Shown piece by piece: positions 1,925-24,249 of a stretch of DNA of 32,000 bases. Source of the DNA: Gammaproteobacteria bacterium (GTDB lineage: Bacteria > Pseudomonadota > Gammaproteobacteria > G965277405); NCBI GenBank assembly GCA_965277405.1, contig OZ255726.1:1129123-1161122 (forward strand), in the 5' to 3' direction. Position 1 is the stretch's first letter, and each line of letters begins with the position of its first letter. The position numbers were made by a program, and so were the translations under genes. Under the pieces are notes generated by a model. That model did no database searches. It was not told the origin of the DNA and was given only the letters and a program-made list of their open reading frames with translations.

Positions 1925-2005
1925 GTGTTCAGGTTGTTGTAATGTTACGAACGCGGGGCGTGTTTTACCGATAAATCACGCCTCGGGCTTTGCAGGTTTG
2001 GCGCA

Positions 2006-2938
2006 ATGCACTTGATAAACAAAATACCCAACAAGGAACTCCTGTTCCTCTTAGTTGCCGCCGTTGTGATATTTTCGATATTTGCAAATCGATTTTTGAC
2101 GCCCTCGAACTTTGAGAACATTCTTACGGGTTATTCGTTTCTGGCAATTCTTGCCATCGGCCAGGGTCTGACCATCATGGTTAGAGGAATTGATCTCAGC
2201 ATCGGGTCGAACGTTGCTTTGGGGGCGATGGTGCTTTTCGATTTGACGATGATCCTGCAACTTCCAGGATATCAGGCAATACCGCTTGCGACCTTGGCTG
2301 CCTATCGCGGAGCAGTTTATGCCATTTCGGGGCGGCAACTTTTCCCCGAACTGTCTTCAAAACCCATAACCGACCCATGGATTCGTTATCTGGGTGATTT
2401 TATCGACCTAGGCGGTCTATTGCGGCTCGACGGTGTTGTGCAACTTCCCTGGATACCAGTTTCCTTTGTTGTGCTTCTTATCTTTGCCGCTGTCGTCCAG
2501 TTTGCGGTGTTTAGCACGCGCTGGGGGCTAAACCTGAGGACACTTGGGGGCAACGCGGAAGCCGCGCATCTTGCCGGTCTAAACACCAGCCTTCTGGAAA
2601 TTTCAGCCTATGTTATTTGCGGCCTAGCGGCCGGGCTTGCAGCCGTCATCCTAGTTGGACGCTTCACGACCGCGACGGAGGCGCTTGGCAGCGGCATGGA
2701 ACTAACCTCGATTGCTGCGGCCGTGATTGGCGGAACCAGGTTGCACGGTGGTGTAGGCGGGGTGTTCGGCCCGCTAATTGGCGCCTTCCTGCTTGGTGTT
2801 ATTTTGATCGGGTTGACGTTGATGGGCGTTTCGCAATTTATCCAGCAGATTTTGACGGGTACAATACTAATTGCAGCAGTTTCATATGATCGATTCCTCA
2901 TTCATCGTTCGAAAAAGCGTGCTGGGGTGACAACATGA
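2006..2938 (+). CDS. ABC sugar transporter permease (RbsC-like), possibly internally deleted
   Basis: Multiple hydrophobic segments, IGQGLTIMVRGIDLSIGSNVALGAM and AVIGGTRLHGGVGGVFGPLIGAFLLGVI motifs of the RbsC family. Confidence 0.85.
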   Translation: MHLINKIPNKELLFLLVAAVVIFSIFANRFLTPSNFENILTGYSFLAILAIGQGLTIMVRGIDLSIGSNVALGAMVLFDLTMILQLPGYQAIPLATLAAYRGAVYAISGRQLFPELSSKPITDPWIRYLGDFIDLGGLLRLDGVVQLPWIPVSFVVLLIFAAVVQFAVFSTRWGLNLRTLGGNAEAAHLAGLNTSLLEISAYVICGLAAGLAAVILVGRFTTATEALGSGMELTSIAAAVIGGTRLHGGVGGVFGPLIGAFLLGVILIGLTLMGVSQFIQQILTGTILIAAVSYDRFLIHRSKKRAGVTT

Positions 2939-4449
2939 TACCCTTTGCCCTGCAAGCGCTTGCGGTATCGAAGAAATTTGGCACTTTTGCAGCTCTGCAG
3001 CCGCTAGATTTTTCGATTGAGGTGGGGGAGGTGCGCGGACTGGTTGGCAGTAACGGTGCGGGAAAGACCACCTTCATCAAGGTGCTAACGGGTGCACACC
3101 GCCCGACAACTGGCACGATTTTGGTGGACGGGCACGAACTGCCGGACAATTCGACCGCTGCGCATCTGCACGCTGGTATCGCATGCATCTATCAGCATTC
3201 CAGTCTGGCACCAAATCTGACAGTTCTTGACAACCTGTATTTAGGACGTCATCCATGCGGTATCCTTGGCATAATCAATAGACAAAAATTGCGAGCGGAT
3301 GGCCTTGCGCTTCTTACCGGTCATGGAGTGGATGTTGAGCCCGACGTGCTCGTTGAGACCTTGCCCACGGTCAAACAGAAACAAATCGAAATCCTCAAGG
3401 CCTTGGCACAAAATGCCAAAATAATCCTGATGGACGAACCGACAGCGTGGCTGTCACATGCGGAGGTAAAGCGGCTCCACGAAACTATTGCCAGACTGCA
3501 AGCGCGCGGCATCGCTATTGTCTATATTTCCCATATGATAAACGAAATTTTTCAGGTCTGTGACAGTGTGTCGGTCCTGCGCGATGGAACACATGTTTGG
3601 ACCGGCGCGGTCTCTAGTACGGATCGCCCTGAGTTGATACAGCATATGCTTGGTGAATCAGCTAGCAAACTCACCGGTCATTCCAGACCTCAGGACAGGG
3701 CAAAGCGTAACTCCGGTGCGGTGAAATTGTCCAGCAAGGGGCTTTGCCGTGCCGGGTATTTTTTTGATGTCAACTTCGATCTGCATGCTGGTGAAATTTT
3801 GTGTGTTACCGGACTGATCGGAGCCAAGCGCACCGAACTTGTGCGTTGTCTATTCGGCGCAGACCGACCGGACAAGGGAACAATCGAGATCGACGGTGCA
3901 CCGGTGCAAATCAGTTCACCCAGACAGGCAATGAACCTGGGCATCGGTTTCGTTCCCGAGGATCGTCACCGAGATGGCCTTTTTTTGACGCATTCAATCC
4001 GCGAAAACCTGGTTCTTGCCGCGCTTTCCAAGCTCAGCGATGGGCTGTTGATGAGGAGCCGTGTGTTTCGTGATGTAGCTGCACGCCAGGTCAAAAAGCT
4101 AAACATCGTACCGACCGATCCAGAACGGGTGGTCGGCTGGCTCAGTGGTGGCAACCAGCAGAAAATCCTGCTCGGCAAATGGCTTGAAACCAATCCGTCG
4201 ATCATCATTCTTGATGAGCCGACGGTCGGCGTCGATGTCGGCGCCAAGGCTGAAATCTACGCAATTCTTGATGAATTGAAGCGCCGTGGCGCGGCTGTTT
4301 TGGTTGTTTCGTCGGACATTGAGGAAGTTCAAGCGATTGCCGACAGAATTGCGGTGATGGCGGATGGGTGTCTTGGCAAGTGCTTTGAGGCATCGAGTGT
4401 TACACATGCGGAATTGATAGGCTTGATCAGCGGAAATGCGACCGCATGA
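2935..4449 (+). CDS. ABC sugar transporter ATP-binding protein with two nucleotide-binding domains (RbsA/MglA-like)
   Basis: Walker A GLVGSNGAGKTT, Walker B IILMDEPT, second domain LSGGNQQKILLGKWLETNPSIIILDEPTVGVDVGAKAEIY. Overlaps the stop codon of the upstream permease. Confidence 0.92.
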   Translation: MIPFALQALAVSKKFGTFAALQPLDFSIEVGEVRGLVGSNGAGKTTFIKVLTGAHRPTTGTILVDGHELPDNSTAAHLHAGIACIYQHSSLAPNLTVLDNLYLGRHPCGILGIINRQKLRADGLALLTGHGVDVEPDVLVETLPTVKQKQIEILKALAQNAKIILMDEPTAWLSHAEVKRLHETIARLQARGIAIVYISHMINEIFQVCDSVSVLRDGTHVWTGAVSSTDRPELIQHMLGESASKLTGHSRPQDRAKRNSGAVKLSSKGLCRAGYFFDVNFDLHAGEILCVTGLIGAKRTELVRCLFGADRPDKGTIEIDGAPVQISSPRQAMNLGIGFVPEDRHRDGLFLTHSIRENLVLAALSKLSDGLLMRSRVFRDVAARQVKKLNIVPTDPERVVGWLSGGNQQKILLGKWLETNPSIIILDEPTVGVDVGAKAEIYAILDELKRRGAAVLVVSSDIEEVQAIADRIAVMADGCLGKCFEASSVTHAELIGLISGNATA

Positions 4450-5375
4450 GCACTTTTGCGGACAAATTTTCCAGCCTTGCATTGCCTATTGCGGTTGTAG
4501 TAACCGCTCTTGTGTTTGGACTGGTTGAGCCAGCCTTTTTGTCGTCGGGAAACCTGACGGGCATCGTGCATCGTATGGCGACCATTGGCATTATGGCAGT
4601 TGGCATGACGTTTGTGATCATGACAGGCGGCATTGACCTTGCGGTCGGTCCTGTTATGGCGCTCGCCGGGCTTGCGTCGTATTTCTCACTTCAGGTCGGC
4701 ATTCCCCTGCCATTGTCAATCGTGGTCGGCGTGTTGAGCGGTGCGGTTGTCGGTGCAATCAATGGCACAGCAATAGCGTTTTTCAGGTTGCCTGCGATAA
4801 TTGTGACCCTTGGCATGTTGTCGATCGTGCGTGGCGTGGCGCTGACGATCGGCGGACCGACCCTCCACCAGATCAGCGACCAACCTGCGTACACATTCAT
4901 AGGTACAGGGTCGTTTTGCGGCCTTCCGGTTTCGGTGTTGATTTTTGCATTGCTGGCTTTGATTGCAGTGCTGGTCCAGAAATACACCATCTACGGCCTT
5001 CAGATTTCGACCCTTGGTGACAATGAAAGAGCGTCGGAACTGTCCGGTCGCCCCACCCGATTGCTGAAATTGTCAACATATGTTGTGTGTGGAGTGACTG
5101 CAGCAATTGCGGGTATTATCGAGAGCTCACAAGTTTACACCGCGTCGGCGAACTTTGGTGAGTTTGGCACTGAACTCGATGTGATTTCAGCCGTCATACT
5201 TGGCGGGGCAAGCATGTTTGGCGGAAAGGAGTATGTATGGAACACAGTGCTGGGTGTCCTATTTCTGGGTGTGATCAATAGCGGGCTGAACATTTTGAAC
5301 ATTCCCGTGGATGTTCAGCTAATGGTCAAGGGCGCTATAATTGTTTTGGCGATCAGCGTTTCTTTGCATAAGTAA
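4446..5375 (+). CDS. ABC sugar transporter permease (RbsC-like)
   Basis: GMTFVIMTGGIDLAVGPVMALAG, GAINGTAIAFFRLPAIIVTLGMLSIVRGVALTIGG, AVILGGASMFGGKEYVWNTVLGVLFLGVINSGLN. ATGA overlap with the ATPase gene. Confidence 0.9.
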   Translation: MSTFADKFSSLALPIAVVVTALVFGLVEPAFLSSGNLTGIVHRMATIGIMAVGMTFVIMTGGIDLAVGPVMALAGLASYFSLQVGIPLPLSIVVGVLSGAVVGAINGTAIAFFRLPAIIVTLGMLSIVRGVALTIGGPTLHQISDQPAYTFIGTGSFCGLPVSVLIFALLALIAVLVQKYTIYGLQISTLGDNERASELSGRPTRLLKLSTYVVCGVTAAIAGIIESSQVYTASANFGEFGTELDVISAVILGGASMFGGKEYVWNTVLGVLFLGVINSGLNILNIPVDVQLMVKGAIIVLAISVSLHK

Positions 5376-5928
5376 CGGGAGGCTAGCATAGTGAGGTCCT
5401 GTCGATATAGTGCAGCCCTCAAATGTTCTGGCATTGTGGGTTATGCAACACTCAAATCTTCGAGGTGATACCAATGCAGAATTCCGACAGTTGTCTGGCT
5501 TGGAAAAAGATGCAAGACCATCGCATTAACATATTTTTTCATAGAAAATATCTGCATTCCTCATTACTCAGAAAATCATCGTATGCGGAGTATCAGCAGG
5601 TCACAATCTTAGTTTTAGTGATGCTTTGTGAGGAAATTCCCGCTTGTGAACTCGATTGTTTGGCAGACCTCATACATTGGCAAGACCTGCGCCAACACCT
5701 GCGCATTGTGCCTAGAGACAATATCAGTATGGTTACAATATTTATTACCAACATGGTACAACTTAGCGGATGAAGCAGTGAGCCATGCAGTTGCTCGCGC
5801 TTTAGTTTGCATGAAGTTTGGTAATTTTACTCTTGCAGGCAGCTAATGCGACAATGTGTGTCCGCTTGCGGAACAAGGTAAACACATAATCTTTTCAAAG
5901 CCCTCCTTAGCATTTACACTTAGGGAAT

Positions 5929-6573: not shown

Positions 6574-7140
6574 TTAGTAAATTAAATTCGCTCTGCGATT
6601 TAACTTCCACGCACCTTCATTATCAGCACTATCAACTGGTCGTAACTCACCATAACTGATTACATTAATATTTTTTTGCCGTACGCCACGAATACGTAAA
6701 TACCTAGCTACAGCTTCACCGCGACGATTACCTAATGCGTTATTATATTCAATCGTGCCACGATCATCAGCATGACCTTCGATAGTTACTTCTAATTCCG
6801 GCTGTGCAAGCAAACGAGATAAAATCACTTCTGCATGCGCATCTAACGCTTCAAACGCAATTCCCTTGAGTTCATCTTGATCATAGTCAAAGTAATATGT
6901 TTTAACATCTAAAAGTTCAGCCGTTCTTCGTGATTCTTCACTTGCTTCACTTGCTTCACTTGCTTCAGTGGCAGCAGTTGCTTGTTCGGTTGGTGTTTCT
7001 TGCTGTAGTGTGGCTTCTTGCTCTACAGTTTCAGCAACACTACCACTATCTTCGGTGTCACTACTTTTTACTTGATTTTGCGCGCAAGCACTAATTCCAG
7101 CTAAAAACACAAAAAACAAAATGGTTTGCAGTATTTTCAT
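6574..7140 (-). CDS. pal: OmpA/Pal-family peptidoglycan-associated lipoprotein
   Basis: Signal with lipobox-like AGISAC; OmpA-like domain YYFDYDQDEL...EVTIEGHADDRGTIEYNNALGNRRGEAVARYLRIRGV. Confidence 0.8.
   Translation of the reverse strand: MKILQTILFFVFLAGISACAQNQVKSSDTEDSGSVAETVEQEATLQQETPTEQATAATEASEASEASEESRRTAELLDVKTYYFDYDQDELKGIAFEALDAHAEVILSRLLAQPELEVTIEGHADDRGTIEYNNALGNRRGEAVARYLRIRGVRQKNINVISYGELRPVDSADNEGAWKLNRRANLIY
6941..6967. repeat. 9-bp tandem repeat (CTTGCTTCA)x3 in the linker of the Pal-like gene, encoding EASEASEAS
   Basis: Three perfect adjacent copies of CTTGCTTCA, with a degenerate copy GATTCTTCA upstream. Confidence 0.85.
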
Positions 7141-7154: not shown

Positions 7155-7766
7155 TTAATATTTTAATTCAACTCGTCTATTTTGCATCCAAGCAGTTTCG
7201 TCATTCCCTTTGACTGCTGGGACCTCTTCACCATAGCTTACAACACGTACTGCTGTTTTGGGAACACCTCGATGAACTAAATACGTACTTACAGCAGCAG
7301 CCCGTCTTTCTGCTAAGGCAATATTATAGCCTTTAGAGCCACGATCGTCTGTATGTCCTTCAACTATAACAACAAGATTCGGGTTACTCAATAACGCATG
7401 TGTCATATTTTGCACATGAGCATCTAAAGTAGCGAATGCTTGTGGGCGTATTTGACTACTGTTCGTAGTAAATAAGAATACACGCTGTTGTAAGTTTGAG
7501 TCTGAGCCGAGTAATTCTAGGGATTGTGTAATCAAATAATCTGTTGGACGGAGTTCATCATCAAAACCAAACTCAGAACCTTGTGTAATGTCTTGTTCGG
7601 GAAAGTTTTGATCAGAAAAAAAGCTGTTGTTAGTATTGTCATCAACTGGAATAACAACTGCGCAACTCCCAATGGACGTCATCATAACAAAAAAAGCCAG
7701 TCGAATACTGGTGTCAATCATAACTATACTGCCATTGGCTTTGTGAACGAGAATATATTTTAACAA
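7155..7766 (-). CDS. Second OmpA/Pal-family lipoprotein paralogue (real start possibly downstream at MIDTSIRLAFF...)
   Basis: Lipobox-like TSIGSC; OmpA-like domain LVVIVEGHTDDRGSKGYNIALAERRAAAVSTYLVHRGV...NRRVELKY. Confidence 0.78.
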   Translation of the reverse strand: MLKYILVHKANGSIVMIDTSIRLAFFVMMTSIGSCAVVIPVDDNTNNSFFSDQNFPEQDITQGSEFGFDDELRPTDYLITQSLELLGSDSNLQQRVFLFTTNSSQIRPQAFATLDAHVQNMTHALLSNPNLVVIVEGHTDDRGSKGYNIALAERRAAAVSTYLVHRGVPKTAVRVVSYGEEVPAVKGNDETAWMQNRRVELKY

Positions 7767-7940
7767 GATGCTTAAGTGTTCTGTAGTAAGAAAGCTGATT
7801 TCCTATACAAATTATAATTGTCAGGTAGGTTATTAGCATATTATTGTGTGAAACTCTAGGGAAAATGTAAATATCAAAATCTGATAATCTCTTGGCAATA
7901 ATAGTAGAAAGTTTACAAACTCTTGGCACTATACTAACAG

Positions 7941-8024
7941 GCCCGGATGGTGGAATTGGTAGACACTCAAGACTTAAAATCTTGTGGACGTAAGTCCGTG
8001 CCGGTTCGAGTCCGGCTCTGGGTA
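7941..8024 (+). tRNA. tRNA-Leu (anticodon TAA)
   Basis: Acceptor GCCCGGA/TCTGGGT, anticodon stem-loop CAAGA-CTTAAAA-TCTTG, long variable arm GGAC-GTAA-GTCC, T arm GCCGG-TTCGAGT-CCGGC. The genome sequence after the discriminator base is TCA, not CCA. Confidence 0.95.
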
Positions 8025-8238
8025 TCATTTTTTGTTGCAATAGTATGGGGTGCATCCAGATTAGTATGTAGTATTTTGCACAAAGGTTACAATTTTGAGC
8101 GTGTAGTTTGTGTGTAATCATTTATGAAAAAACACAGGCCCGCTTGTTGTGATGCGTTTAGAGCCGCTTTTTTTTATAAGCTTTAGCATTATGTGTGGTT
8201 TGTTTGTGTTGGCGCGGTTCAGTCGTCGGTTAAGAAAC

Positions 8239-8507
8239 CTTTGATTAAGCCCATGATGGGCGAGACGGAGAAAAAAACGCTGATAAAACTTAAGCGAAGT
8301 GCGCGCTAACGCTTGGTGGGTCTTGCCAAGTGCTGCAACGAGGCAGCGCAGCGTTTTTTCCCGTTGTTGTGTTGAATATACTTTCGGTTTGCGGCAGCGG
8401 CACTTGCTGTGTTGCATCCCATGGCGTATATGCTATGCCATGCGCTTAGCGCCTTGCAATCCTCAGCAAATGCAGGCAAACTCGCGCCATAAGCGAGTTA
8501 ATCAAAG
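8239..8507. repeat. Dispersed TIR element, copy 2 (MITE-like)
   Basis: Begins CTTTGATTAA and ends TTAATCAAAG. Internal inverted repeat GGAGAAAAAAACGCTG ... CAGCGTTTTTTCCC. Shares GTTGTGTTGAATATACTTTCGGTTTG and GCACTTGCTGTGTTGCATCCCATGGCGTATATGCTA with the other copies. Confidence 0.87.
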
Positions 8508-8589
8508 ATTACATAGGGCAGCGGTAATGCCTTGTAATCAACGCCAGTTCGATACAAACTTGGCGTATTTGCAATTATTAATATATTAT

Positions 8590-9576
8590 ATGCAATACCC
8601 TCAAACTAGAATGCGCCGGCTACGCTCTGACGTATGGATACGGAAACTGGTACAACAAACATCGTTAAGCGTGCATGACTTTATCTACCCTGTATTCGTC
8701 CACTATGACCCAAACCATCGTCAGCCGATTGCCGCGCTGCCTGGGATTGAGCGGATGGGTAATACAGTGTTGCTGCGTCATTTGCAGCCATTGGTACGGC
8801 AAGGGTTGCTGGCGATTGCAATATTTCCTGTTATTGATGCTAACAAAAAATCAGCAGATGCTGCTGAGGCTTGGAACCCTAACGGATTGGTGCAACAAGC
8901 AGTCGTTAGTGTTAAAAAGCACTTTCCTCAACTTGGGGTGATTACTGATGTTGCCTTGGATCCGTATACCAGCCACGGTCAAGATGGGCTCATGGATGCG
9001 CATGGATATATCGTCAATGACAGCAGTTGCGATGTGTTAGTGAAACAGGCGTTGTCGCATGCAGATGCAGGTGCTGATATAGTTGCACCGTCTGATATGA
9101 TGGATGGGCGGATTGGGTTAATTCGCACTGCTTTGGAGGAACATGCGTATCCATTAGTTAAAATATTGGCATATAGTGCGAAATATGCATCAGCATATTA
9201 TGGACCGTTTCGCGCAGCGGTTGGTTCAGTACAAAGCCTTGCTGGTGCTAATAAATCAACGTACCAAATGGATATCGCCAACAGTGCCGAAGCGCTAAAG
9301 GAAATTCAATTAGATATCGATGAAGGCGCTGATATTGTTATGGTAAAACCGGCGCTACCGTATCTGGATATCATTCAGTCGGCACATAACATATTTAAAA
9401 CAACACCTGTGTTTGCATATCAAGTGAGTGGTGAGTATGCGCAACTCCAAGCTGCAATAGCCAATGGCTGGCTTGATGATGCGGCTATTGTCGAAGCATG
9501 TATGGCGATAAAGCGTGCGGGGGCGAGTGCAATGTTGAGTTACTTTACTCCGAAAATTTTTTCATTGCTGGCGTGA
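8590..9576 (+). CDS. hemB: Delta-aminolevulinic acid dehydratase (porphobilinogen synthase)
   Basis: MRRLRSDVWIRKLVQQTSLSVHDFIYPVFV..., DVALDPYTSHGQDG, DIVAPSDMMDGRI, KPALPYLDII, YQVSGEYAQLQAA. The longer upstream ORF start (8299) lies inside the repeat element. Confidence 0.95.
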   Translation: MQYPQTRMRRLRSDVWIRKLVQQTSLSVHDFIYPVFVHYDPNHRQPIAALPGIERMGNTVLLRHLQPLVRQGLLAIAIFPVIDANKKSADAAEAWNPNGLVQQAVVSVKKHFPQLGVITDVALDPYTSHGQDGLMDAHGYIVNDSSCDVLVKQALSHADAGADIVAPSDMMDGRIGLIRTALEEHAYPLVKILAYSAKYASAYYGPFRAAVGSVQSLAGANKSTYQMDIANSAEALKEIQLDIDEGADIVMVKPALPYLDIIQSAHNIFKTTPVFAYQVSGEYAQLQAAIANGWLDDAAIVEACMAIKRAGASAMLSYFTPKIFSLLA

Positions 9577-10604
9577 GTAGTTTGCATGCGCTAAATGACG
9601 TTATTATTTCTCAACAGAACACTCTGGCTGTTCCAGCAATAGCAGATGCGCTTGTGGTTGTGAGCCACTTGCAAGATGTCCAACAATTGCCAGCCTTACA
9701 AGAGCGTCTGCAGTTGCCAATACTGCTGCTCGGTAGTGGGAGTAACGTGGTATTACCACAACGGTTGCATCGGCTAGTTGTTAAGTTGGCTGTTGGCAAA
9801 ATGAGTGTTCACGCAGAAGATGATGCGTCGATCATCATTGATGTGGCAGCGGGCTATAACTGGCATCAACTCGTCTACACGGCGACACAACGCGGCTGGT
9901 TTGGTTTAGAGAAGTTAGCGCTTATTCCAGGGACTGTTGGTGCAGCTCCTTTGCAAAATATAGGCGCATATGGCGCATCATTTAGTGATTGTTGTGTGGC
10001 GGTAGAATATTATGATTTGCAGCAGCAAACGTGGTGTTGGCGTGCTAGTGAGCGTTGTGAATTTGGATATAGAACGAGTTGGTTTGCCCACCAACGTCAG
10101 TTGATAGTTACTCAAGTCAGGTTGCGATTAGCTAAATTTGCAGCTGCTATTCAGCCTGAATATCAGCAGTTGCGAGATAGGTGTGGTGACCAGCTTGCGC
10201 CGATGGATGTGTTGCATGCGGTCATTGCCTTGCGTACAAGAAAACTTCATGACCCGCAGCGCACCCCAAATGCTGGGAGTTTTTTTCACAATCCTGTTGT
10301 CGATGTGGCGATTGCAGAGAATATTTGCACTAGGTTTCCACAAATCAAATCACATGTTCGTCAACAACAAGTTGTTATCCCTGCAGCTGCACTTATTGAA
10401 CACGCTGGTCTCAAAGGTTTTTGCGATAGTGTGTACAATGGTGCTGCAGTGTCGGGGCGACACGCGCTGTGTCTTATCAATTGTGGCCATGCAACAGGGA
10501 ATGATTTTTTGCGACTTGCCAAGCACATCCAGCGCACAGTATTGGCGCAATTTGGGGTATTGTTGACGATAGAACCGCAGGTAATTCAGCCCGTCCAACA
10601 ATGA
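9573..10604 (+). CDS. murB: UDP-N-acetylenolpyruvoylglucosamine reductase; GTG start overlapping the hemB stop
   Basis: LLLGSGSNVVLP, GLEKLALIPGTVGAAPLQNIGAYG, GSFFHNPVV motifs of MurB. Confidence 0.92.
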   Translation: MSSLHALNDVIISQQNTLAVPAIADALVVVSHLQDVQQLPALQERLQLPILLLGSGSNVVLPQRLHRLVVKLAVGKMSVHAEDDASIIIDVAAGYNWHQLVYTATQRGWFGLEKLALIPGTVGAAPLQNIGAYGASFSDCCVAVEYYDLQQQTWCWRASERCEFGYRTSWFAHQRQLIVTQVRLRLAKFAAAIQPEYQQLRDRCGDQLAPMDVLHAVIALRTRKLHDPQRTPNAGSFFHNPVVDVAIAENICTRFPQIKSHVRQQQVVIPAAALIEHAGLKGFCDSVYNGAAVSGRHALCLINCGHATGNDFLRLAKHIQRTVLAQFGVLLTIEPQVIQPVQQ

Positions 10605-16400: not shown

Positions 16401-17105
16401 ATGCGACTAAACTATAAATTTCAACATGCCGTGCTGCATGGCATAGCTGATAAATTACGTAATGTTCGACTGTTTGCTATAATAAGCGCAGGTTTTTTGG
16501 GATTGGTTTCAGGTTGTTCATTGCTTGGTCTTGCTGATGGTGCGGAAAATACGACGCCTGCTGACTCGTTGGCTCAATTATTAGGTAATCAGCTCGGCCA
16601 ACAAAAAACCAATCAACGGGTTTCAGCTGCTTCTATATATGGTGAGAAAGGCATTATTTTATATGATCCTTTAGGGAATGGTACGGATTTCGTGTTGGAC
16701 CCATCTGGGCGGATTGTGAAATCTGATTTAGACGCGGCAGAAACAGGATTAGAAATTAACGATTTGGAACGACGTTTTTTTCGTTCCAACAAGCATCTGA
16801 TTGATGCCGAAAGTTTATTTTATTCTGGTTTGTACGAAGAAGCACTCAACGAAACAAAAGCATCAATTGAGCTTACTCCGCGTTCAGCAAAAGCTTATGC
16901 AATAAAAGGTTCATTGGAATATAAGCTTGGGCGGCTAGAGCGTGCTAGAGCAGCTTGGATGGTTGCATTAAAGCTTGACCCAAAGATGAAAAGCGTGTCA
17001 CGCGCCCTCTATTTAACTTCTATTCCTGATGCAAATCAAAGAATAGCTGCAACAAGTGGCAGCACGGATAGCGCAGTAGTAGTTGGTGGGGGCACAGAAC
17101 AGTAA
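16401..17105 (+). CDS. TPR-containing lipoprotein, first gene of the motor-like cluster
   Basis: Lipobox-like GLVSGCS; tandem TPR-like segments (LIDAESLFYSGLYEEALNETKASIELTPRSAKAYAIKGSLEYKLGRLERARAAWMVALKLDP). Confidence 0.75.
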   Translation: MRLNYKFQHAVLHGIADKLRNVRLFAIISAGFLGLVSGCSLLGLADGAENTTPADSLAQLLGNQLGQQKTNQRVSAASIYGEKGIILYDPLGNGTDFVLDPSGRIVKSDLDAAETGLEINDLERRFFRSNKHLIDAESLFYSGLYEEALNETKASIELTPRSAKAYAIKGSLEYKLGRLERARAAWMVALKLDPKMKSVSRALYLTSIPDANQRIAATSGSTDSAVVVGGGTEQ

Positions 17106-17195: not shown

Positions 17196-19208
17196 ATGGG
17201 CTGTAATATAATGCCTCAAAATATACTGGCAATATTCATTGGCGTAGTGGTAATGCTCTCAGGTCAAGCATGGGCTGTAATTATTGATGTGGAAAATCCA
17301 GCTGTTGACGAGGTGTTTTTTGAAAAAGAAATGGAAAGCAGGCTTTCTCGTGATATTCAAGCATATCTTGGACATGATAGGTTTATTTTAGGTATTGATT
17401 TTAAGCTTTCTTCGTTTGCAGGCTTCGGGAGGCAAGGTAGCGATGCTGGTGATAGCGATGCTGGTGATAGAGTGGTTGTTCGTGAAATAACAACGTCATT
17501 GCCTGGTTTACCTGGTGCAGAAGTAAAATTTCAAAAAGAATTAACGGGTGAAGATATTAATAATTTGCGGGAAAATCTGCGCTTAGATGAAAGCTCGCTG
17601 GGGTCTAGAAGTCCGCTAAGCTCTGTGCTACAGCCAAGCACACAAAGTGCTAATGCGCTTGCAGGAACTGGAACTGAAGTGTTTCTTGTGTTAGATACTA
17701 CGGTGACAACGGCGCAGGAAAACTTTATCCGCGATGTAATGTCTAGAAAGTTGAGTATAGATCTAAACAAAGGTGATAGTATTCAAATCGTTCGATCTAC
17801 TTTTGAACGTGAAAGTAATAGTTCAAATACGAGCAATCAACAGCCTAATCAATTTGGAGAAAATCCTGCGCAGCAACCGCCATTATCTGGAAATCAAGTC
17901 CCCGTTGCAGGTGCAGGCGCACCAACTACTGACTCGGGAAATGTAAGTGATTCAGTAACTGATCCAACTTTGTTGCAAAAAATCAATGAACTTGAACAGG
18001 GGTTGAAGAAAGATTTTATTGAGAAAAATTTAGTTTGGATTTTACTCGGTGGCTTTGGTTTTTTATTGTTTTTTAGTCTGATATTGTTTTTGGCATCACG
18101 CAAACCGGCGCAATCAATGATGCCAGCGTATCCGCCGATGGCGCCGCCGCAAAGTCCTAGAACAGGCGCTAGTAATGCCGAAAAAAATAATGTTGATCAA
18201 ATTGAGATTGAGGGAATGCGTCATCGTGCGGTAGTGGCAGAAACTAAACGTGAGATTGCAGCGATAGGTTTAGCATCGCCCAATATTGTAAAACAAGAAA
18301 TGAACAATCTGTGGGCACAAAACCGCATGGATACGATTGCTGCTGTATATACTGGTCTTGGAAATTCAATTTATGAGTCATTGTTTGGTGGACTGTCTGC
18401 ATCTCAATCTTCAGAAATTAGTGCGTATTTATCAGAACGTGAAATCACATCGACACAATTAGAGGCACAAGTTAAAGATTTTTATTCTCGATCATTACGT
18501 GCTGCGAACGACCCTGATGGTAAGCATAAGTCGCATTCATTTGCATTCTTAAATAAAATGAGAATAGGGTCGCTGCAATTCTTGTTAAAAAATGAAAAAC
18601 CACGGGTCAAAGCCTTGGTTATTTCACAGCTTGAAAATGAAAAGGCAACGACTGTATTAAATAGTTTTGAGGATAAAGATCGAAGTAAAGTTGTTCATGA
18701 ATTAGCTCAATTTGAAGACTTTCCGTATGAGACATTTAATGAAGTTGCGCAATTATTGGTTAGAAAAGCTAAAAAAATTCCTGCTGTTAATAATGTTGGG
18801 GCAAATGGTATAAATATTTTAATTAATTTATTGGATAATATGGATAGCAGTGATGAAAGTCGCTTAATTGAAGAATTGCAAAATATGGATCCTGAGTTAC
18901 ACGATAAGCTTAAAACATTGTATTTTACTTTTAATGATCTAAGTAAAGCGCCGCTGCGTGTTATGGGTGAAGCGCTACTAGAAGTTGATAAAAGCACTAT
19001 CGCTATAGCGTTAATGCAAGCATCTGATGTTATTAGAAAACGTGTTTTAAGCAGTATGCCTAAGCGTGTTTCCCAGACTATTGAGGTTGAAATAAAAGAA
19101 ATACAAGACACTATTAAAAACGAACAGATTCAGTCTGCTCGAAAAGTGTTGTTACGCAGTATGCGTGCTTTAGTACGCAATGGTAAAATTGATATGAGTA
19201 AAATCTAA
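17196..19208 (+). CDS. Membrane-anchored FliF(C-terminal)-FliG-like fusion protein (real start possibly 17208)
   Basis: N-terminal signal-like helix. Periplasmic segments resemble FliF C-region (EKEMESRLSRDIQAYLGHDRFILGIDFKLSSF; TTAQENFIRDVMSRKLSIDLNKGDSIQIVRSTFE). TM helix NLVWILLGGFGFLLFFSLILFLA. FliG-like N, middle and C domains (LQFLLKNEKPRVKALVISQLENEKATTVLNSFEDKDRSKVVHEL; INILINLLDNMDSSDESRLIEELQNMDPELHDKLKTLYFTFNDLSKAPLRVMGEALLEVDKSTIAIALMQASDVIRKRVLSSMPKR). Confidence 0.75.
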   Translation: MGCNIMPQNILAIFIGVVVMLSGQAWAVIIDVENPAVDEVFFEKEMESRLSRDIQAYLGHDRFILGIDFKLSSFAGFGRQGSDAGDSDAGDRVVVREITTSLPGLPGAEVKFQKELTGEDINNLRENLRLDESSLGSRSPLSSVLQPSTQSANALAGTGTEVFLVLDTTVTTAQENFIRDVMSRKLSIDLNKGDSIQIVRSTFERESNSSNTSNQQPNQFGENPAQQPPLSGNQVPVAGAGAPTTDSGNVSDSVTDPTLLQKINELEQGLKKDFIEKNLVWILLGGFGFLLFFSLILFLASRKPAQSMMPAYPPMAPPQSPRTGASNAEKNNVDQIEIEGMRHRAVVAETKREIAAIGLASPNIVKQEMNNLWAQNRMDTIAAVYTGLGNSIYESLFGGLSASQSSEISAYLSEREITSTQLEAQVKDFYSRSLRAANDPDGKHKSHSFAFLNKMRIGSLQFLLKNEKPRVKALVISQLENEKATTVLNSFEDKDRSKVVHELAQFEDFPYETFNEVAQLLVRKAKKIPAVNNVGANGINILINLLDNMDSSDESRLIEELQNMDPELHDKLKTLYFTFNDLSKAPLRVMGEALLEVDKSTIAIALMQASDVIRKRVLSSMPKRVSQTIEVEIKEIQDTIKNEQIQSARKVLLRSMRALVRNGKIDMSKI

Positions 19209-19219
19209 GACTATTTTGC

Positions 19220-20011
19220 ATGCCATCCTTCGGAACAATTGGTGGCTTTATAGCAGGGATTGTACTGTTCACAACTGCTGTTAGCCAAGCCACTGATGAT
19301 TATATTATATTCCTAAGCGTCCCCAGCGTACTTTTAGTCGTTGGCGGTACGATTTCCGCAACATTTTTAAGTTTTGAGGTTAGGGATATTTTTAGTGCGT
19401 TTTTTGGTATGTTTTTTTTGTTTTTTAAGAAAAATAATGAGAAAGGTTTTAGAAAAGATATAAAGATGCTATTAGATTTTGCTAAAATACAACGAACAGA
19501 AGGAATGCTGCAAATTGAAATGCAACTTACAAGAACGCAACGTAAAGATGTTTTTATTAGCTTTGCTGTTGATTTACTATTGAGTAATTATCGTCCGGCT
19601 GAGATACGGTCAATGTTAACGGATATGGTATTAGCAAATTTTGATAAAGGTAACCTCAAGGCCTCTGTCATGCGTACAATGGGTGCGTATTCGCCTGCTT
19701 TTGGAATGATAGGTACGTTAATTGGTCTTATTATTATTCTCAGTGGATTCGGTGGAGATATATCACAACTAGGCGCTGGGCTTTCACTGGCGCTTATTTC
19801 CACCTTATATGGCGTTTTATTAGCCAATTTCACGTATTATCCTGCCGCAGAAAAATTCGCTAGAAATACTGATTTGCAACATTTTCGTGAAAAAATTTTA
19901 TTAGAAGGCTTTGTGTTGATTGCTGCAAGAAAAGGAGCGTTGGCTATACAGGATAAATTAAATAGCTTGTTAACGCCTGAATTACGCTACAAAATTAACA
20001 GTAGTCAATAA
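19220..20011 (+). CDS. MotA/PomA-like stator subunit
   Basis: SVPSVLLVVGGTISATFLSF, GNLKASVMRTMGAYSPAFGMIGTLIGLIIILSGF, LGAGLSLALISTLYGVLLANFTYYPAAEKFARN typical of MotA. Confidence 0.88.
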   Translation: MPSFGTIGGFIAGIVLFTTAVSQATDDYIIFLSVPSVLLVVGGTISATFLSFEVRDIFSAFFGMFFLFFKKNNEKGFRKDIKMLLDFAKIQRTEGMLQIEMQLTRTQRKDVFISFAVDLLLSNYRPAEIRSMLTDMVLANFDKGNLKASVMRTMGAYSPAFGMIGTLIGLIIILSGFGGDISQLGAGLSLALISTLYGVLLANFTYYPAAEKFARNTDLQHFREKILLEGFVLIAARKGALAIQDKLNSLLTPELRYKINSSQ

Positions 20012-20014: not shown

Positions 20015-20713
20015 ATGGATGTGTATCCAGAAGGGGGGGTAGCTACAAGACTACAATCAAACAGCAGTGGAAAAGATGCTAGGAGGAATGAGCCTTGGCT
20101 GTTAACGTATTCAGACACGATTACTTTGCTTTTTACTTTTGTGCTGATAATTTTAAAAATTTCTTCTATTGATGTGAATAAGGCAGAAGAATTACGTGAA
20201 GGTTTATCTCAAACATTTTTAAAAAAAGATATTTCAACTGCATTTCAATCATTTTCAAAAGAAATTGAGCAAGTAACAAACATTAATCATGATTTACAGG
20301 TTGATATCACCAGTAGATACGTGACTATAGAGTTGACAAACTCAAGTATATACGATGTTGGTAGCGCTGATATTGTGAATAAAGAGATTAAAACTATACA
20401 GTCAGTAGTTGATATTCTAATACAAGACCCATACGCAAGGTATACATTAGAAGTTGAAGGACATACTGATGATGTTCCAATTAAAAACTTGGAGTTTCAG
20501 TCCAATTGGGAACTTTCAACTGCTCGAGCAACAAACATTGTTAGATATTTAGAAGAAAATGGTGTAAGTAGAGAACGGATGAAAGCAATTGGATACGCAG
20601 ATTCTAAACCATTGCCTGAGACCTTGGATATTAATGGCAATATTGTTCCTGAAAAAAGACCGTTAAATCGTAGAATTTCAATCCGTATTTCACGCTATAA
20701 AATTAATGACTAA
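20015..20713 (+). CDS. MotB-like stator subunit with OmpA-type peptidoglycan-binding domain
   Basis: EPWLLTYSDTITLLFTFVLIIL resembles the MotB TM with the ion-binding Asp (YSD); C-terminal OmpA domain YTLEVEGHTDDVPIKNLEFQSNWELSTARATNIVRYLEENG...KRPLNRRISIRI. Confidence 0.88.
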   Translation: MDVYPEGGVATRLQSNSSGKDARRNEPWLLTYSDTITLLFTFVLIILKISSIDVNKAEELREGLSQTFLKKDISTAFQSFSKEIEQVTNINHDLQVDITSRYVTIELTNSSIYDVGSADIVNKEIKTIQSVVDILIQDPYARYTLEVEGHTDDVPIKNLEFQSNWELSTARATNIVRYLEENGVSRERMKAIGYADSKPLPETLDINGNIVPEKRPLNRRISIRISRYKIND

Positions 20714-21662
20714 AAGAGTTCATCATCAACAAATACAATCACTACTAAACGCTTTACAAAATAATATTGTTGGACAAAAAAAACTATTAGAAAGATTGAT
20801 CATTGGATTATTATCTGATGGACATATATTAGTTGAAGGCGCGCCAGGGTTAGCAAAATCGCTAACTGTTGCAACATTAGCAAAGCTTATAAACTGTGAT
20901 TTTCAGCGTATTCAATTTACTCCAGATTTACTCCCCAGCGATATTACAGGGAGTGAAATCTACAAGCCGCAAACTCAAGCATTTAGCTACCAAAAAGGGC
21001 CAATATTTAGTAATTTAGTGTTAGCTGATGAAATTAATAGAGCACCAGCAAAGGTTCAATCAGCCCTGCTTGAAGCAATGTCTGAACGCCAAGTAACCAT
21101 CGGCAATACAACGTATACGTTACCAGCTTTATTTCAGGTCATGGCAACTCAAAATCCCATTGAACACGAAGGTACGTTCCAACTGCCAGAAGCACAGCTT
21201 GATAGGTTTATTATGTATGTGGCAATTGATTATCCTTCTATAGATGAAGAGTTAATGATTATGCGACTTAATCAAAAAAAGGCGGTTGAGATCACACCAG
21301 TTATTGACATTACAACTATTTTGCAAGCACGTGAGGAAGTCCGTGAGATGTATATTCACGAAAGATTATTAATGTATATTGCAGAAGTTGTCCATGCTAC
21401 GCGTACCCAAAAAAACAGAACAAGTGGCAATCAAGGCTATATAGAAATAGGTGCAGGACCAAGAGCAAGTATTGCGTTAGCAACACTGTCACGTTCTCTT
21501 GCATATCTAAGAGGTCAAGACGAGGTCACTCCAGATATTATCCAAGAGCTGTGTTATGACGTGCTCGCCCATCGAATCATTTTAAATTTTAGCTCAGAAA
21601 ACACAGTTCAACAAAAATACCAAATAATTGACGAGGTACTGAGTAGCGTGAAAATTGTATAG
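20706..21662 (+). CDS. MoxR-family AAA+ ATPase
   Basis: VEGAPGLAKSLT (Walker A), QFTPDLLPSDITG, LADEINRAPAKVQSALLEAMSERQVT, VMATQNPIEHEGTFQLPEAQLDRF. Confidence 0.95.
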   Translation: MTKRVHHQQIQSLLNALQNNIVGQKKLLERLIIGLLSDGHILVEGAPGLAKSLTVATLAKLINCDFQRIQFTPDLLPSDITGSEIYKPQTQAFSYQKGPIFSNLVLADEINRAPAKVQSALLEAMSERQVTIGNTTYTLPALFQVMATQNPIEHEGTFQLPEAQLDRFIMYVAIDYPSIDEELMIMRLNQKKAVEITPVIDITTILQAREEVREMYIHERLLMYIAEVVHATRTQKNRTSGNQGYIEIGAGPRASIALATLSRSLAYLRGQDEVTPDIIQELCYDVLAHRIILNFSSENTVQQKYQIIDEVLSSVKIV

Positions 21663-22460
21663 ATGTTTCAAGTTTTAGAAAAGCTGTCAACAGGGTGGTT
21701 AATAAATTCCGAATATATCCAAGCAGCGTATGCGTATCAGCGCAAGGTCAGTAAAAGTAGGCTACATCATACTTATGGTGCCAGCAGATTAACAAAAAAA
21801 GGAAAAGGTTCTGATTTTGATCATTTAAGGGAGTTCACTAGCAGTGATGATATTCGACATATTGCATGGAAAGCTTCGTTACGATCACAAAAAACATATA
21901 CAAAAGTATTTTCTGATGAGATTGAAGATAAGATAAAAATTTATGTGATGTTGAATGCCGAGTTGTCATTTGCTATAAAAAAAAGATCTGCAGCATTTGC
22001 TTTATATATAGCACTCCACAGCGCTGTAGAAACATGTTATAAAAAAAATATGCAATGTGAAATTTTGCTTATTCATGGCAACAATGTCATCGAGAGAGCC
22101 AAAATACGTATGCAGAAAGAAATTATCAGAACACTTAGTAGCCTTGCTAAGAAAATCAACGCTGCAATGTGTAAGTATAAAACTGGTGATTTATTTAAAA
22201 TGGATGATATAAAGATTACTCCGCATTCAATTGTTCTTACAGGTGCGCGTAATATACAGCATTACGGATTAGATAGCAGCACCCTACTGGGCAGCACACT
22301 ACTGGTAGTAGATGAAGAACCATTGCAACGAATAAGAATTATTGCCCAAACAAATTCTGGTGTGAAACAGGTTAATGTCGGCGCAAATGCCATAGACTGC
22401 GCCATCGTTGCAGATGACACTGTCGAAGATATCTATGCAAAAGTGCAAAGCTGTATATGA
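21663..22460 (+). CDS. DUF58 domain protein
   Basis: GKGSDFDHLREFTSSDDIRHIAWKASLRSQKTYTKVFSDE, the DUF58 signature. Directly abuts the moxR stop codon. Confidence 0.88.
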   Translation: MFQVLEKLSTGWLINSEYIQAAYAYQRKVSKSRLHHTYGASRLTKKGKGSDFDHLREFTSSDDIRHIAWKASLRSQKTYTKVFSDEIEDKIKIYVMLNAELSFAIKKRSAAFALYIALHSAVETCYKKNMQCEILLIHGNNVIERAKIRMQKEIIRTLSSLAKKINAAMCKYKTGDLFKMDDIKITPHSIVLTGARNIQHYGLDSSTLLGSTLLVVDEEPLQRIRIIAQTNSGVKQVNVGANAIDCAIVADDTVEDIYAKVQSCI

Positions 22461-22870
22461 AAGATGTTCATCAACCATATAATTTATATCTTTATTTAAA
22501 TATTACTTGGATTGCTATTGCAATTGTTTTCATGGTATTTCTTATAATAAGTTATATATATTTACAACGATATCTAGCAAATAGAAAAATACAGCAAACT
22601 ATACGTAGGTTGCAAGATATAGAGAGCGATGAGGTTTTTGCATTAAACATTGTGCAAGCCATCAAGCATTCAATGGATGAACATGGGATACAAAGCAATA
22701 TGCTCCATGGCGAACGCTTGTATAAAACCTTGCTTAAACATTACAAATACAAGGCAACCATCACATTAAGAGACTTTTTAATATCAACATACAAAGAACA
22801 AAAAATGATTCAGAGACATTTAGTTCTAAAAGAAATTGAGTTACTAATAAAAAGCAATGTTAGCAATTGA
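22457..22870 (+). CDS. Small single-TM protein (DUF4381-like)
   Basis: ATGA overlap with the DUF58 gene; one N-terminal TM helix then a charged cytoplasmic-type domain; position matches the DUF4381 slot in MoxR/DUF58/VWA operons. Confidence 0.55.
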   Translation: MKDVHQPYNLYLYLNITWIAIAIVFMVFLIISYIYLQRYLANRKIQQTIRRLQDIESDEVFALNIVQAIKHSMDEHGIQSNMLHGERLYKTLLKHYKYKATITLRDFLISTYKEQKMIQRHLVLKEIELLIKSNVSN

Positions 22871-23783
22871 TTGGCCGCTATTTTCTATTGTAGTAATTGG
22901 TTGCTATGTATTGTATAAATACCGAAAAACCATCCGCGTTACTAGCATCTGGTATCCATTTGTAATAGATGAGGCAACTAAAAAATCTCACTATCGTTCG
23001 TCCTTTTTATTTGCAGTGTGCTCTATATTGCTGATTGGCGGAGGTATGCGCCTGCAAAAAATAGATGAAACTGTTAGTATTAAGCAGAATTATAGGGACT
23101 TAATACTAGCAATAGACGCATCAGATAGCATGCGAGTACGCGATATGGAAATAAATAATCAGCTTTTTAGCAGATACGACGCTGTAAAATATTATATGGA
23201 TAAGTTTATCGATAAACGTCAAGGTGATCGATTAGGGTTTGTGATATTCGGATCAAAGGCATATATTCAAGCACCATTAACAGCCGATTTATCGGTGATA
23301 AAAACATACCTAGAAGAGTCATATATAGGCATTGCTGGGCCAAAGACGGCAATTGGTGATGCACTTGCCTTAGCAGTCAAACAAAAAGACAAAGATGACA
23401 CGAATCAAGCAATTATTTTAATAACAGACGGCTCAAATACATCAGGAACAATTGATCCATATCAAGCCGTAGCAATTGCAAAAAAAAAGAAGATTAAAAT
23501 ATATACCATAGCTATTGGCAATAGACGATTTTCACGAGACATAGATTTTAGGTTTCTGCAAACCGCTGCAGCATCAACCAACGGCAAGCATTTCTATGCC
23601 AGTAACGCAAATGAATTGGCATCTATTTATGCGCAACTAGATCGACTAGAACAAAATATCGAACAGTCTTCAACGTTTAGCAAGTATTTTGAGTTGTACT
23701 ATTGGTTTGTATTAGCCTTCATTATTGTGTTTATAGTGGGTTATATGTTTACTCCGTCAAGGCGTGTCAGGAAACATATATAA
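22857..23783 (+). CDS. VWA-domain membrane protein (BatA-like)
   Basis: DLILAIDASDSMRVRD (MIDAS DxSxS), FVIFGSKAYIQAPLTADLSVIKTYLEE, IILITDGSNTSGTIDPYQAVAIAKKKKIKIYTIAIG; N-terminal and C-terminal TM helices. Confidence 0.88.
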   Translation: MLAIDWPLFSIVVIGCYVLYKYRKTIRVTSIWYPFVIDEATKKSHYRSSFLFAVCSILLIGGGMRLQKIDETVSIKQNYRDLILAIDASDSMRVRDMEINNQLFSRYDAVKYYMDKFIDKRQGDRLGFVIFGSKAYIQAPLTADLSVIKTYLEESYIGIAGPKTAIGDALALAVKQKDKDDTNQAIILITDGSNTSGTIDPYQAVAIAKKKKIKIYTIAIGNRRFSRDIDFRFLQTAAASTNGKHFYASNANELASIYAQLDRLEQNIEQSSTFSKYFELYYWFVLAFIIVFIVGYMFTPSRRVRKHI

Positions 23784-23802: not shown

Positions 23803-24249
23803 ATGCGAATCATAATGGATAATAATCAATTAAAAATTGCTGGATTTAGTTTGATTGAATTGCTGATTGTAATGGTGATTGTTGCTGTACTCAGTGTTGT
23901 CGCCTTGCCAGTATACCAAACGTATGTAGGGCGAGCAAAGTTTACAGAGGTTATTCAAGCTACCGCACCATATAAAATTGCCGCAGAAATTGCATGGCAA
24001 AATACTGCAACGAGTCTAACTGATCTTGATGCTGGATCCCATGGAATTCCAGATGCAACAGGAAGTAATGACCGCGAAATAAAATCTATCACTATGGTCG
24101 CTGGAGTTATTACCGCAACAGCAAATACTGTCGTAGATGAAAACAACGCAGGAGTAACTTACGTACTTCAGGCCCACGATTTTTCAGGTGGAATCATATG
24201 GAAGGTTGATGCTGCCAACAGTAGCTGTAAAAATCTTGGCTATTGTTGA
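23803..24249 (+). CDS. Type IV prepilin-like protein (ORF track starts at GTG 23764)
   Basis: Class III signal KIAG^FSLIELLIVMVIVAVLSVVALPVYQTYVGRAKFTEV, including Glu at position +5; C-terminal Cys pair SSCKNLGYC. Confidence 0.85.
   Translation: MRIIMDNNQLKIAGFSLIELLIVMVIVAVLSVVALPVYQTYVGRAKFTEVIQATAPYKIAAEIAWQNTATSLTDLDAGSHGIPDATGSNDREIKSITMVAGVITATANTVVDENNAGVTYVLQAHDFSGGIIWKVDAANSSCKNLGYC

Follow-up and report, generated by a model that had tools for sequence, protein, structure and literature searches.

Can the rotor and stator of the flagellar motor exist as a unit in their own right, apart from any flagellum? The question is raised by a locus in a Gammaproteobacteria bacterium (GTDB lineage Bacteria; Pseudomonadota; Gammaproteobacteria; G965277405; NCBI GenBank assembly GCA_965277405.1), which was analysed as a single stretch of 32,000 nucleotides (contig OZ255726.1, positions 1,129,123 to 1,161,122 of the forward strand), here called the window. 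Within it, the open reading frame (ORF) at 17196..19208 on the plus strand, the strand of all features below unless stated, encodes a protein of 670 aa; its presence was confirmed by an ORF check, and public collections hold, on a contig of 2.17 Mb, an identical product of 665 aa that starts at M6 (nt 17211). An earlier note on this DNA proposed that the ORF encodes a natural, membrane-anchored fusion of the flagellar proteins FliF and FliG, a compact rotor-like subunit standing in for two proteins of the flagellum. Sequence, profile and structure evidence supports this proposal: the protein reads as an end-to-end FliF–FliG fusion made up of a signal peptide, a split ring-building motif 3 (RBM3) with a collar-like insert, one transmembrane (TM) helix, a FliF-like tail and the N-terminal, middle and C-terminal domains of FliG.

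Domain architecture of the fusion protein

The cytoplasmic half of the protein was assigned to FliG by several kinds of comparison. Pfam FliG_M matches aa 460-529 (18573..18782) with 51.2 bits (cut-off 25) and FliG_C matches aa 559-666 (18870..19193) with 70.2 bits (cut-off 23.3), and solved FliG chains match the same region (3hjl, E=2.7e-21, aa 458-667). An AlphaFold2 (AF2) model of aa 305-670, with a mean predicted local distance difference test score (pLDDT) of 73, gave 13 significant matches in the PDB (E<=0.001), every one of which is FliG. Full-length FliG chains (310-331 residues) align with this model over 312-339 columns (8wiw, E=3.5e-9), which suggests that the N-terminal domain is present in addition to the middle and C-terminal domains. 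A profile built from the window's clade together with the Bermanella clade (A1) also aligns in a single stretch to Escherichia coli FliG 23-321. The earlier note had claimed a resemblance to all three FliG domains and had named a structure or profile search of this half as the check on it; the two Pfam domains, the 3hjl match and the alignment of the model with full-length FliG support the claim, most directly for the middle and C-terminal domains.

The N-terminal domain of FliG is the least readily recognised of the three. FliG_N has no Pfam match at the expected place in the window protein, where helices resembling this domain (aa ~377-438, 18324..18509) were assigned from the family profile against E. 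coli FliG 6-64 and from Foldseek. At the equivalent position FliG_N scores above its cut-off in the distant members P0053 and P0054 (36-40 bits against 25). Over 45 diverse representatives of the family, FliG_N is matched by 24 at E<=0.01, some of these, the window protein included, being cross-hits on the middle domain; FliG_M is found in 41 and FliG_C in 40 at the same threshold.

Immediately before these helices, aa ~340-376 (18213..18323) resemble the C-terminal tail of FliF, as judged against E. coli FliF 522-550, and contain the invariant residues G358, L359, P362, M369, L372 and Q375. It is through this region that FliF binds FliG in the flagellum. With the wider family profile (A4), window residues ~349-376 align with E. 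coli FliF 522-550 and the next ~58 residues with FliG 6-64, so that the junction runs from the end of FliF to the start of FliG. Since fliF and fliG are adjacent in E. coli, with an overlap of 8 nt, such a fusion is one small mutation away.

We also inspected the residues through which FliG contacts its partners. In the torque helix (aa 622-641, nt 19059-19118), R624, E632 and K641 occupy the positions of E. coli FliG R281, D289 and R297, and the positions of K264 and D288 are taken by M607 and V631; close relatives have EE or ED at residues 631/632. The EHPQR motif of the middle domain, which binds FliM, is degenerate. It reads E467 K468 P469 R470 ... E502, with H, Q and R all replaced, and R470 and E502 are conserved.

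The protein begins with a segment (aa 1-27, 17196..17276) that ends in AWA and is a putative signal peptide by sequence and hydropathy; typical signal peptides are found in its relatives, and the segment sits where FliF has TM1, RBM1 and RBM2. A single strong TM helix (aa ~282-303, 18039..18104), equivalent to TM2 of FliF, was placed by hydropathy and by the family profile, which spans FliF TM2. It is preceded by a low-complexity linker rich in Q, P, N and S (aa 205-280, 17808..18035) that differs in length among relatives in alignment A1. Sequence and hydropathy recovered the ORF, the secretion-signal-like N-terminus and the TM helix that had been described previously.

Between the signal peptide and the linker, an AF2 model of aa 28-207 has the order helix, strand, long insert, strand, helix, strand, that is, a split ring-building motif. 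The first half of the predicted RBM3 comprises a helix (aa 35-58) and a strand (aa 63-68; together 17298..17399, motif E..RL.RDI.AYLGH.RFI), and is placed by the model, by conserved columns and by the family profile, which aligns with E. coli FliF from residue 230. The second half comprises a strand (aa 161-167), a helix (aa 172-185) and a strand (aa 195-201; together 17676..17798) with the motif QE.FIR...GD.I.VVRS.F, which aligns with FliF ..RGDSLNVVNSPF; hhalign of the N-terminal profile placed it on E. coli FliF 396-431 (..RGDSLNVVNSPF against KGDSIQIVRSTF), just ahead of TM2, with a probability of only 6%. When the model was compared with 350,542 PDB chains using Foldseek, the best 11 matches were all to the RBM3/collar region of the FliF MS-ring, and in seven of the 11 a core of 45-47 residues superposes at 1.4-1.8 Å. 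The collar-like insert itself (aa 71-160, 17406..17675), recognised in the AF2 model and the family profile, is for the most part modelled with low confidence in the monomer. Within it, a nearly invariant LPGLP motif (aa 102-106, 17499-17513) aligns with 'VPGAL' of E. coli FliF. LPG is the best-conserved element of the periplasmic domain (L in 42, P in 43 and G in 41 of the 45 representatives), on a loop that is predicted to be disordered and lies inside a variable insert flanked by the two conserved RBM3 motifs.

Profile comparisons extend the match along most of FliF. The profile of the 45 family members aligns with residues 233-558 of the 560 of Salmonella FliF (E=5.4e-17) and with Vibrio FliF (E=4.5e-10), and in E. 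coli it covers FliF 230-550, FliG 6-64 and FliG 113-323. YscJ_FliF_C (PF08345) is matched by 15/45 representatives at E<=0.01, the best at 2.1e-12. The clade-level profile A1 on its own finds FliG and not FliF. No alignment with the family profile was obtained for FliF before residue 230 (it starts at 230-233), and neither the window protein nor a single one of the 45 members matches YscJ_FliF, which covers TM1, RBM1 and RBM2. We conclude that, at the level of the family, homology of the periplasmic part to FliF from RBM3 through to the C-terminus is confirmed, and that TM1, RBM1 and RBM2 are absent. RBM3 is the builder of the S-ring, and RBM1 and RBM2 form the housing, or seat, of the flagellar export gate. 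Lacking TM1, RBM1 and RBM2, the fusion offers no such housing. The earlier note was thus right to see a FliF-like stretch ahead of the TM helix, given the profile matches to Salmonella, Vibrio and E. coli FliF and the Foldseek matches. Its further claim, that the N-terminal TM and ring-building regions of FliF are missing, holds for TM1, RBM1 and RBM2 and fails for RBM3 and the collar-like insert, both of which appear in the models and the family profile.

The stator genes and the conservation of the cassette

The fusion gene does not stand alone. It had been described as the only flagellar gene in the window; this is not the case, since genes for MotA-like and MotB-like proteins follow it by 11 nt and 3 nt. 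The first (19220..20011) encodes a stator A subunit of 263 aa with four TM helices (Pfam MotA_ExbB; NCBIfam models), in which R92 and E100 correspond to MotA R90 and E98 and the equivalents of P173 and P222 are retained. The second (20015..20713) encodes a stator B subunit of 232 aa, with a TM segment that includes the channel Asp (TYSD), a plug and an OmpA-type peptidoglycan-binding domain (Pfam MotB_plug, OmpA). Of 23 cassettes compared, 22 have MotA R90, and E98, P173, P222 and MotB D32 occur without exception. Against the flagellar MotP, MotA and PomA models the MotA-like protein reaches 112-128 bits, against ExbB 22 bits, and a motor of the ExbB/TolQ type was rejected on this basis; the best model for the MotB-like protein is MotD (147 bits). 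Neither reaches its equivalog cut-off (128.6 against 394 for the MotA-like protein and 147.4 against 283 for the MotB-like protein), and together these scores indicate a divergent stator of flagellar type. The other part of the earlier observation is borne out, as no Pfam match to the export apparatus, rod, hook, filament or FliM/N was found in the 32-kb window among ORFs of at least 100 aa, all scanned except a few nested or overlapping ones.

Upstream lies a gene for a tetratricopeptide repeat (TPR) lipoprotein (16401..17105, possible true start GTG at 16431; Pfam TPR_2/TPR_11), with the lipobox LVSG/C and Cys39. Nearly all orthologues share the lipobox Cys, with Ser or Ala after it, and the TPR gene adjoins the fusion gene wherever a related locus extends far enough, with the exception of L027. 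The genes are tightly packed, the gaps being 90 nt (TPR to fusion), 11 nt (fusion to MotA) and 3 nt (MotA to MotB), followed by 8-nt and similar overlaps. There are no plus-strand terminator-like sites between the genes of the operon, in promoter and terminator scans that were overall at or below the expectation from shuffled sequence. Rfam and tRNA scans of the window returned two tRNAs only.

An exhaustive HMMER search with the N-terminal profile against 1.84 billion representatives yielded 61 clusters at 50% identity; search patterns were built from alignment A6, the broad N-terminal alignment A5 being too diverse. Most members are 560-780 aa long, and many of the remainder are short fragments. 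Near-full-length representatives have the same layout of signal peptide, periplasmic domain, one TM helix and FliG. One hit, P0061, is polyubiquitin and was discarded as a false positive of the profile search. No plasmid record encoding the N-terminal half of the fusion was found.

The genes for TPR, fusion, MotA and MotB are kept side by side in ~60 loci from genomes and metagenomes. The cassette is present in 18/18 loci of GTDB representative genomes (one contig ends early) and in 36/38 metagenome loci whose contig extends past the fusion gene. Most relatives are Bermanella-like marine bacteria; 13 of the 18 genome loci are assigned to Bermanella, and among the rest are Oceaniserpentilla, Thalassolituus, a Saccharospirillaceae bacterium and three other or unclassified metagenome-assembled genomes. 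The scan of GTDB representative genomes returned none from the window's clade. One locus (L077:5685-9986) has the permuted arrangement TPR–MotA–MotB–fusion, with a gene that we call X and an ORF of 126 aa ahead of it. That the four genes stay together even when permuted supports a functional linkage between them.

The genomes that carry these loci range from 41 to 69% GC, and the flanks consist of lineage-specific housekeeping genes: pyrG/eno in Bermanella, rpsL–fusA/guaA in L021, his/leu in L019 and pmbA/ftsH–thrS in the window. Among the flanking genes scanned in ~75 loci no other flagellar gene was seen, except for a weak, sub-threshold match to FlgO in protein X. Gene X (L012:8196-9329; L077:4368-5684; L025:6229-7338; L080:11536-12660) lies beside the TPR gene in all loci of the Bermanella clade, where it is upstream, as well as in L077, L025 and L079/L080; it is absent beside the cassette in the window and its closest relatives. 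Protein X has ~360-440 aa, a signal peptide and an invariant CxxC motif, with weak FlgO-like Pfam matches in 9/16 members. Its C-terminal half is beta-barrel-like, and three of the four sequences inspected end in Phe. In two of the more distant arrangements (L025 and L079/L080) the order is fusion–TPR–X, with TPR proteins of 341 aa and 560 aa, and in L027 a gene for a 771-aa fusion is followed by one for a KAP-family P-loop NTPase.

Between the closest pairs of fusion genes, the proportion of nonsynonymous sites that differ (pN) is 0.07-0.12 and that of synonymous sites (pS) 0.7-0.8, both being uncorrected proportions, as synonymous sites are saturated and a corrected dN/dS is not computable. 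A low pN beside a saturated pS indicates strong purifying selection, and hence that the gene is not a relic.

Downstream genes and the rest of the window

In the window the operon continues past motB. The last 8 nt of motB overlap with the start of a gene for a MoxR-type AAA+ ATPase (20706..21662; Pfam), whose link to the cassette is confined to the window's clade. Next come a DUF58 gene (21663..22460; borderline in Pfam, 23.5 bits against 23.4), a gene for a small DUF4381-like protein with one TM helix (22457..22870; 26.2 bits, under the cut-off of 27.2) and one for a BatA-like membrane protein with a von Willebrand factor A (VWA) domain (22857..23783; Pfam, BatA 134 bits against 380). The last gene of the tight cluster (23803..24249) resembles those for type IVa pilins in Pfam and NCBIfam models and in its leader sequence (...KIAG/FSLIELL), and its product has a C-terminal Cys pair.

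The window's clade consists of the window itself, L019/L020 and L021/L022/L028. MoxR and DUF58 follow the cassette in all three lineages, which sit in different genomic neighbourhoods. L019 retains MoxR and DUF58 only, and the window and L021 also have DUF4381, the BatA-like VWA gene and the pilin-like gene. The nine-gene order of the window, with the position of the pilin-like gene filled likewise, recurs in L021/L028 in a different neighbourhood. None of the MoxR, DUF58, DUF4381, VWA and pilin genes accompanies the cassettes of the Bermanella clade. In this clade the MoxR/VWA set and the pilin-like protein may be co-transcribed with the cassette, and may assemble the machine or use it. The set resembles the Bat/MoxR–VWA 'aerotolerance' operons (MoxR, DUF58, BatA, BatB, BatC-TPR, BatD), with MoxR AAA_3, DUF58, DUF4381 and BatA-like VWA in the same order. 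It differs from them in being shortened (neither BatB nor BatD was found in the window's MoxR set), fused into a motAB operon, followed by a pilin-like gene and confined to the window's clade.

In the 1.8-Mb genomes of the closest relatives, a 469-aa ankyrin-repeat protein is encoded near the cassette (L019:5334-6743), and this hints at a host-associated lifestyle for the window's clade.

The remainder of the window contains genes of other kinds. Positions 1-5400 encode a sugar-type ATP-binding cassette (ABC) transporter (binding protein, two permeases and ATPase) and the end of a UDP-GlcNAc 2-epimerase gene at 52-54% GC; the rest of the window is at 34-47% GC, with a sharp change near 5000, and this region may be horizontally acquired DNA. 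Two tandem genes of the OmpA family lie on the minus strand (6574-7140 and 7155-7766). A tRNA-Leu(taa) at 7941-8024 (+) is overlapped by a 135-aa ORF at 7714-8121 (-), which matches no family and is unlikely to be a gene. The hemB (ALAD) ORF (8299-9576) has ~100 extra N-terminal residues ahead of its domain, and the murB ORF (9498-10604) overlaps its end by 79 nt; the listed starts of both, each the first possible start codon, are probably too far upstream.

A proposed rotor–stator module and its alternatives

Taken together, the homology of the parts, the order of their domains, the conservation of functional residues, the linkage of the genes and the purifying selection described above make it probable that the product of the operon is a rotor–stator module, powered by ions and complete in itself, which descends from the flagellar motor and works outside the flagellum. 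In such a module, copies of the fusion protein would come together through RBM3 and the collar as a ring lying against the inner membrane on its periplasmic side; FliF itself forms a ring of about 33-34 subunits. Every copy would cross the membrane once and bear its own FliG, giving a FliG ring beneath, and we propose that this would fix the FliF:FliG ratio at 1:1. MotA and MotB would be held to peptidoglycan by the OmpA-like domain of MotB; H+ or Na+ would pass the conserved MotB Asp, and MotAB would push on the charged torque helix of the FliG C-terminal domain, turning the ring or at least straining it. Since the fusion has neither the RBM1/RBM2 housing nor an intact FliM motif, and no rod, hook or filament gene lies nearby, the module is unlikely to build or turn a flagellum.

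The torque would instead be handed to periplasmic or outer-membrane partners. TPR repeats form a fold that binds peptides, and a candidate ligand for those of the outer-membrane-type lipoprotein is the invariant LPGLP loop. Where protein X is present, as in most relatives, this beta-barrel-like, FlgO-like protein would carry the connection on to the outer membrane, and in the window's clade the MoxR, VWA and pilin products may be assembly factors or cargo. Ring formation, rotation, the type of ion, the contact between TPR and LPGLP, and the output are what we infer in this scheme. The fuller proposal, to which we give about an even chance, is of a free-standing rotary machine that uses an ion gradient to drive an envelope process through the lipoprotein and an outer-membrane partner, in the window's clade jointly with the MoxR/VWA set and the pilin-like product. 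Built from a single rotor gene plus a pair for the stator, such a machine would be smaller than any other natural FliG–MotAB motor.

Several observations weigh against reading these genes as a self-contained rotor–stator module. The window protein taken by itself stays below the Pfam and NCBIfam thresholds for FliF, the link to FliF being made by the family profile. The AF2 model of aa 28-207 is of low confidence, with a mean pLDDT of 53.5 and 64-78 in the core, and the 11 Foldseek matches to FliF have E-values of only 7e-3 to 6e-2, at probabilities of 0.69-1.0. The FliG equivalog TIGR00207 is not reached (86.8 bits against a cut-off of 226.7), an acidic position of the torque helix is Val in the window protein (V631), and over the wide family the torque charges are only moderately conserved (R/K in 30/40, E/D in 21/40). 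The distant members L025, L027 and L079/L080 lack an adjacent MotAB pair. Finally, Bermanella, to which most genome loci are assigned, includes a flagellated species, a point best considered with the alternative that it favours.

That alternative, which we regard as quite unlikely, is that the cassette serves a true flagellum as an accessory or an alternative component. The fusion would co-assemble with canonical FliF and FliG or form an extra ring around the motor, its MotAB would add a further set of stators, and a periplasmic scaffold like those of high-torque motors would be made by the TPR and FlgO-like proteins. All the parts are flagellar homologues, proteins of the TPR and FlgO types are known scaffold components of flagella, protein X has its weak FlgO matches in 9/16 members, and Bermanella marisrubri makes flagella (PMC6248924). 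The earlier note held that a flagellar gene set elsewhere in the genome would make the gene an ordinary one. This does not follow, because most related loci are assigned to Bermanella, which includes the flagellated B. marisrubri, yet they keep the same separate cassette with its own stator. Against a flagellar role stand the ~75 loci without a flagellar neighbour in the scanned flanks, where housekeeping genes that vary with lineage are found instead, the loss of the EHPQR motif for FliM binding, the absence of RBM1 and RBM2, and stator proteins that score well under the flagellar MotA/B equivalog cut-offs; in the window's clade, moreover, genomes of 1.8-2.2 Mb with ankyrin-repeat proteins do not assure a full flagellum. 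A transducer of force or energy that does not rotate continuously is also unlikely, if slightly less so. Here MotAB would use the ion gradient to pull on the membrane-anchored FliG domains, and the TM helix and periplasmic domain would relay the strain to the TPR lipoprotein and on to the outer membrane, in the manner of Tol-Pal or TonB. Such an arrangement would suit a cassette whose constant partner is an outer-membrane-type lipoprotein, joined in most relatives by a beta-barrel-like protein, and which has no axle or filament gene, and this is how other members of the MotA/ExbB/TolQ superfamily operate in the Ton and Tol systems. However, the part of FliF that has been kept is exactly the ring-forming RBM3/collar, the retained contact residues are those of the rotary FliG–MotA interface, and MotB keeps its peptidoglycan anchor, like a fixed stator.

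Two further explanations carry far less weight. An accidental, functionless fusion of fliF and fliG, decaying as the remnant of a lost flagellum, would be easily formed from genes that adjoin and overlap in the E. coli operon, and the small genomes of the window's clade would fit it. It is nevertheless very improbable, and is largely refuted by selection and conservation: pN is ~0.07-0.12 while synonymous sites are saturated, one architecture is kept in 61 clusters at 50% identity and from 41 to 69% GC, functional residues are retained, and the partner genes are conserved despite a permuted order. An anti-phage defence system of the Zorya kind, built on a MotAB-type motor, is hardly credible. 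The MotB-like protein does match ZorB models in PADLOC, and one relative lies near a type I-F CRISPR-Cas locus, but the ZorB matches reflect a general likeness among MotB/OmpA proteins, the MotA-like protein resembles flagellar stators and the neighbours are housekeeping genes. With no ZorA match in PADLOC and no ZorC/D-like or nuclease gene to act as effector, this explanation was rejected.

The proposed rotor–stator module can be set beside machines that are already known. The fusion shares with the flagellar rotor, and with fusions engineered from it, the RBM3/collar, TM2 and FliF tail followed directly by a probable N-terminal domain and the middle and C-terminal domains of FliG; in the torque helix, charges are kept at R624, E632 and K641. 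It differs from the flagellar rotor in having no EHPQR motif, no nearby fliE, fliH, fliM or fliN, and an operon of its own with a stator. Full-length FliF–FliG fusions engineered in Salmonella and Vibrio (PDB 8z4d/8z4g; PMC10941966, PMC11481574) have the same junction as the window fusion; laboratory fusions assemble rings, and the Salmonella fusion is reported to support motility (PMC10941966). Unlike these, the window fusion is natural, and its signal peptide replaces TM1, RBM1 and RBM2 of FliF, leaving no seat for the export gate. The stator has in common with MotAB, PomAB and MotPS a four-TM MotA with R90, E98, P173 and P222, and a MotB with the channel Asp, plug and OmpA domain, and its best family matches are flagellar. 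It differs in its divergence (112-147 bits against equivalog cut-offs of 237-394) and in its position beside a rotor gene rather than beside che or flagellar genes.

Periplasmic scaffolds such as PflA/PflB (TPR; Campylobacter), MotX (Sel1/TPR-like)/MotY and FlgO/FlgP/FlgT (Vibrio) would be analogous, as here too a TPR protein accompanies a rotor and stator, with a FlgO-like protein in most relatives. In the cassette, however, the FlgO matches are below cut-off and the TPR match is generic, so that by sequence its proteins could not be assigned to these families. ExbBD–TonB, TolQR–TolA, GldLM and ZorAB are 5:2 ion-driven motors in which the MotA family serves a non-flagellar task in the envelope, as is proposed for the cassette. 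Those systems have no FliG rotor or RBM3 ring, whereas the partner in the cassette is a rotor of flagellar type engaged through the cytoplasmic torque interface.

All the parts of the operon come from known families. Full-text literature searches turned up only engineered FliF–FliG fusions, and neither a natural one nor a FliG–MotAB cassette outside flagella; an article on the evolution of MotAB (PMC12505986) makes no mention of the cassette. Should free-standing rotation be shown, the system would qualify as a machine of a new kind. In one public source a member of the family bears the label 'flagellar motor switch protein FliG', so that counts of flagellar genes in marine and symbiont genomes may be misread.

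A natural minimal rotor with FliF and FliG fixed at 1:1, free of switch complex, export gate and rod, would suit structural and single-molecule work on torque. To our knowledge the FliG–MotAB torque interface is so far known from flagella only; if the proposal is true, it has been reused outside the flagellum. The finding thereby bears on the evolutionary modularity of the flagellar motor, in which the rotor ring and the stator would persist as an independent unit.

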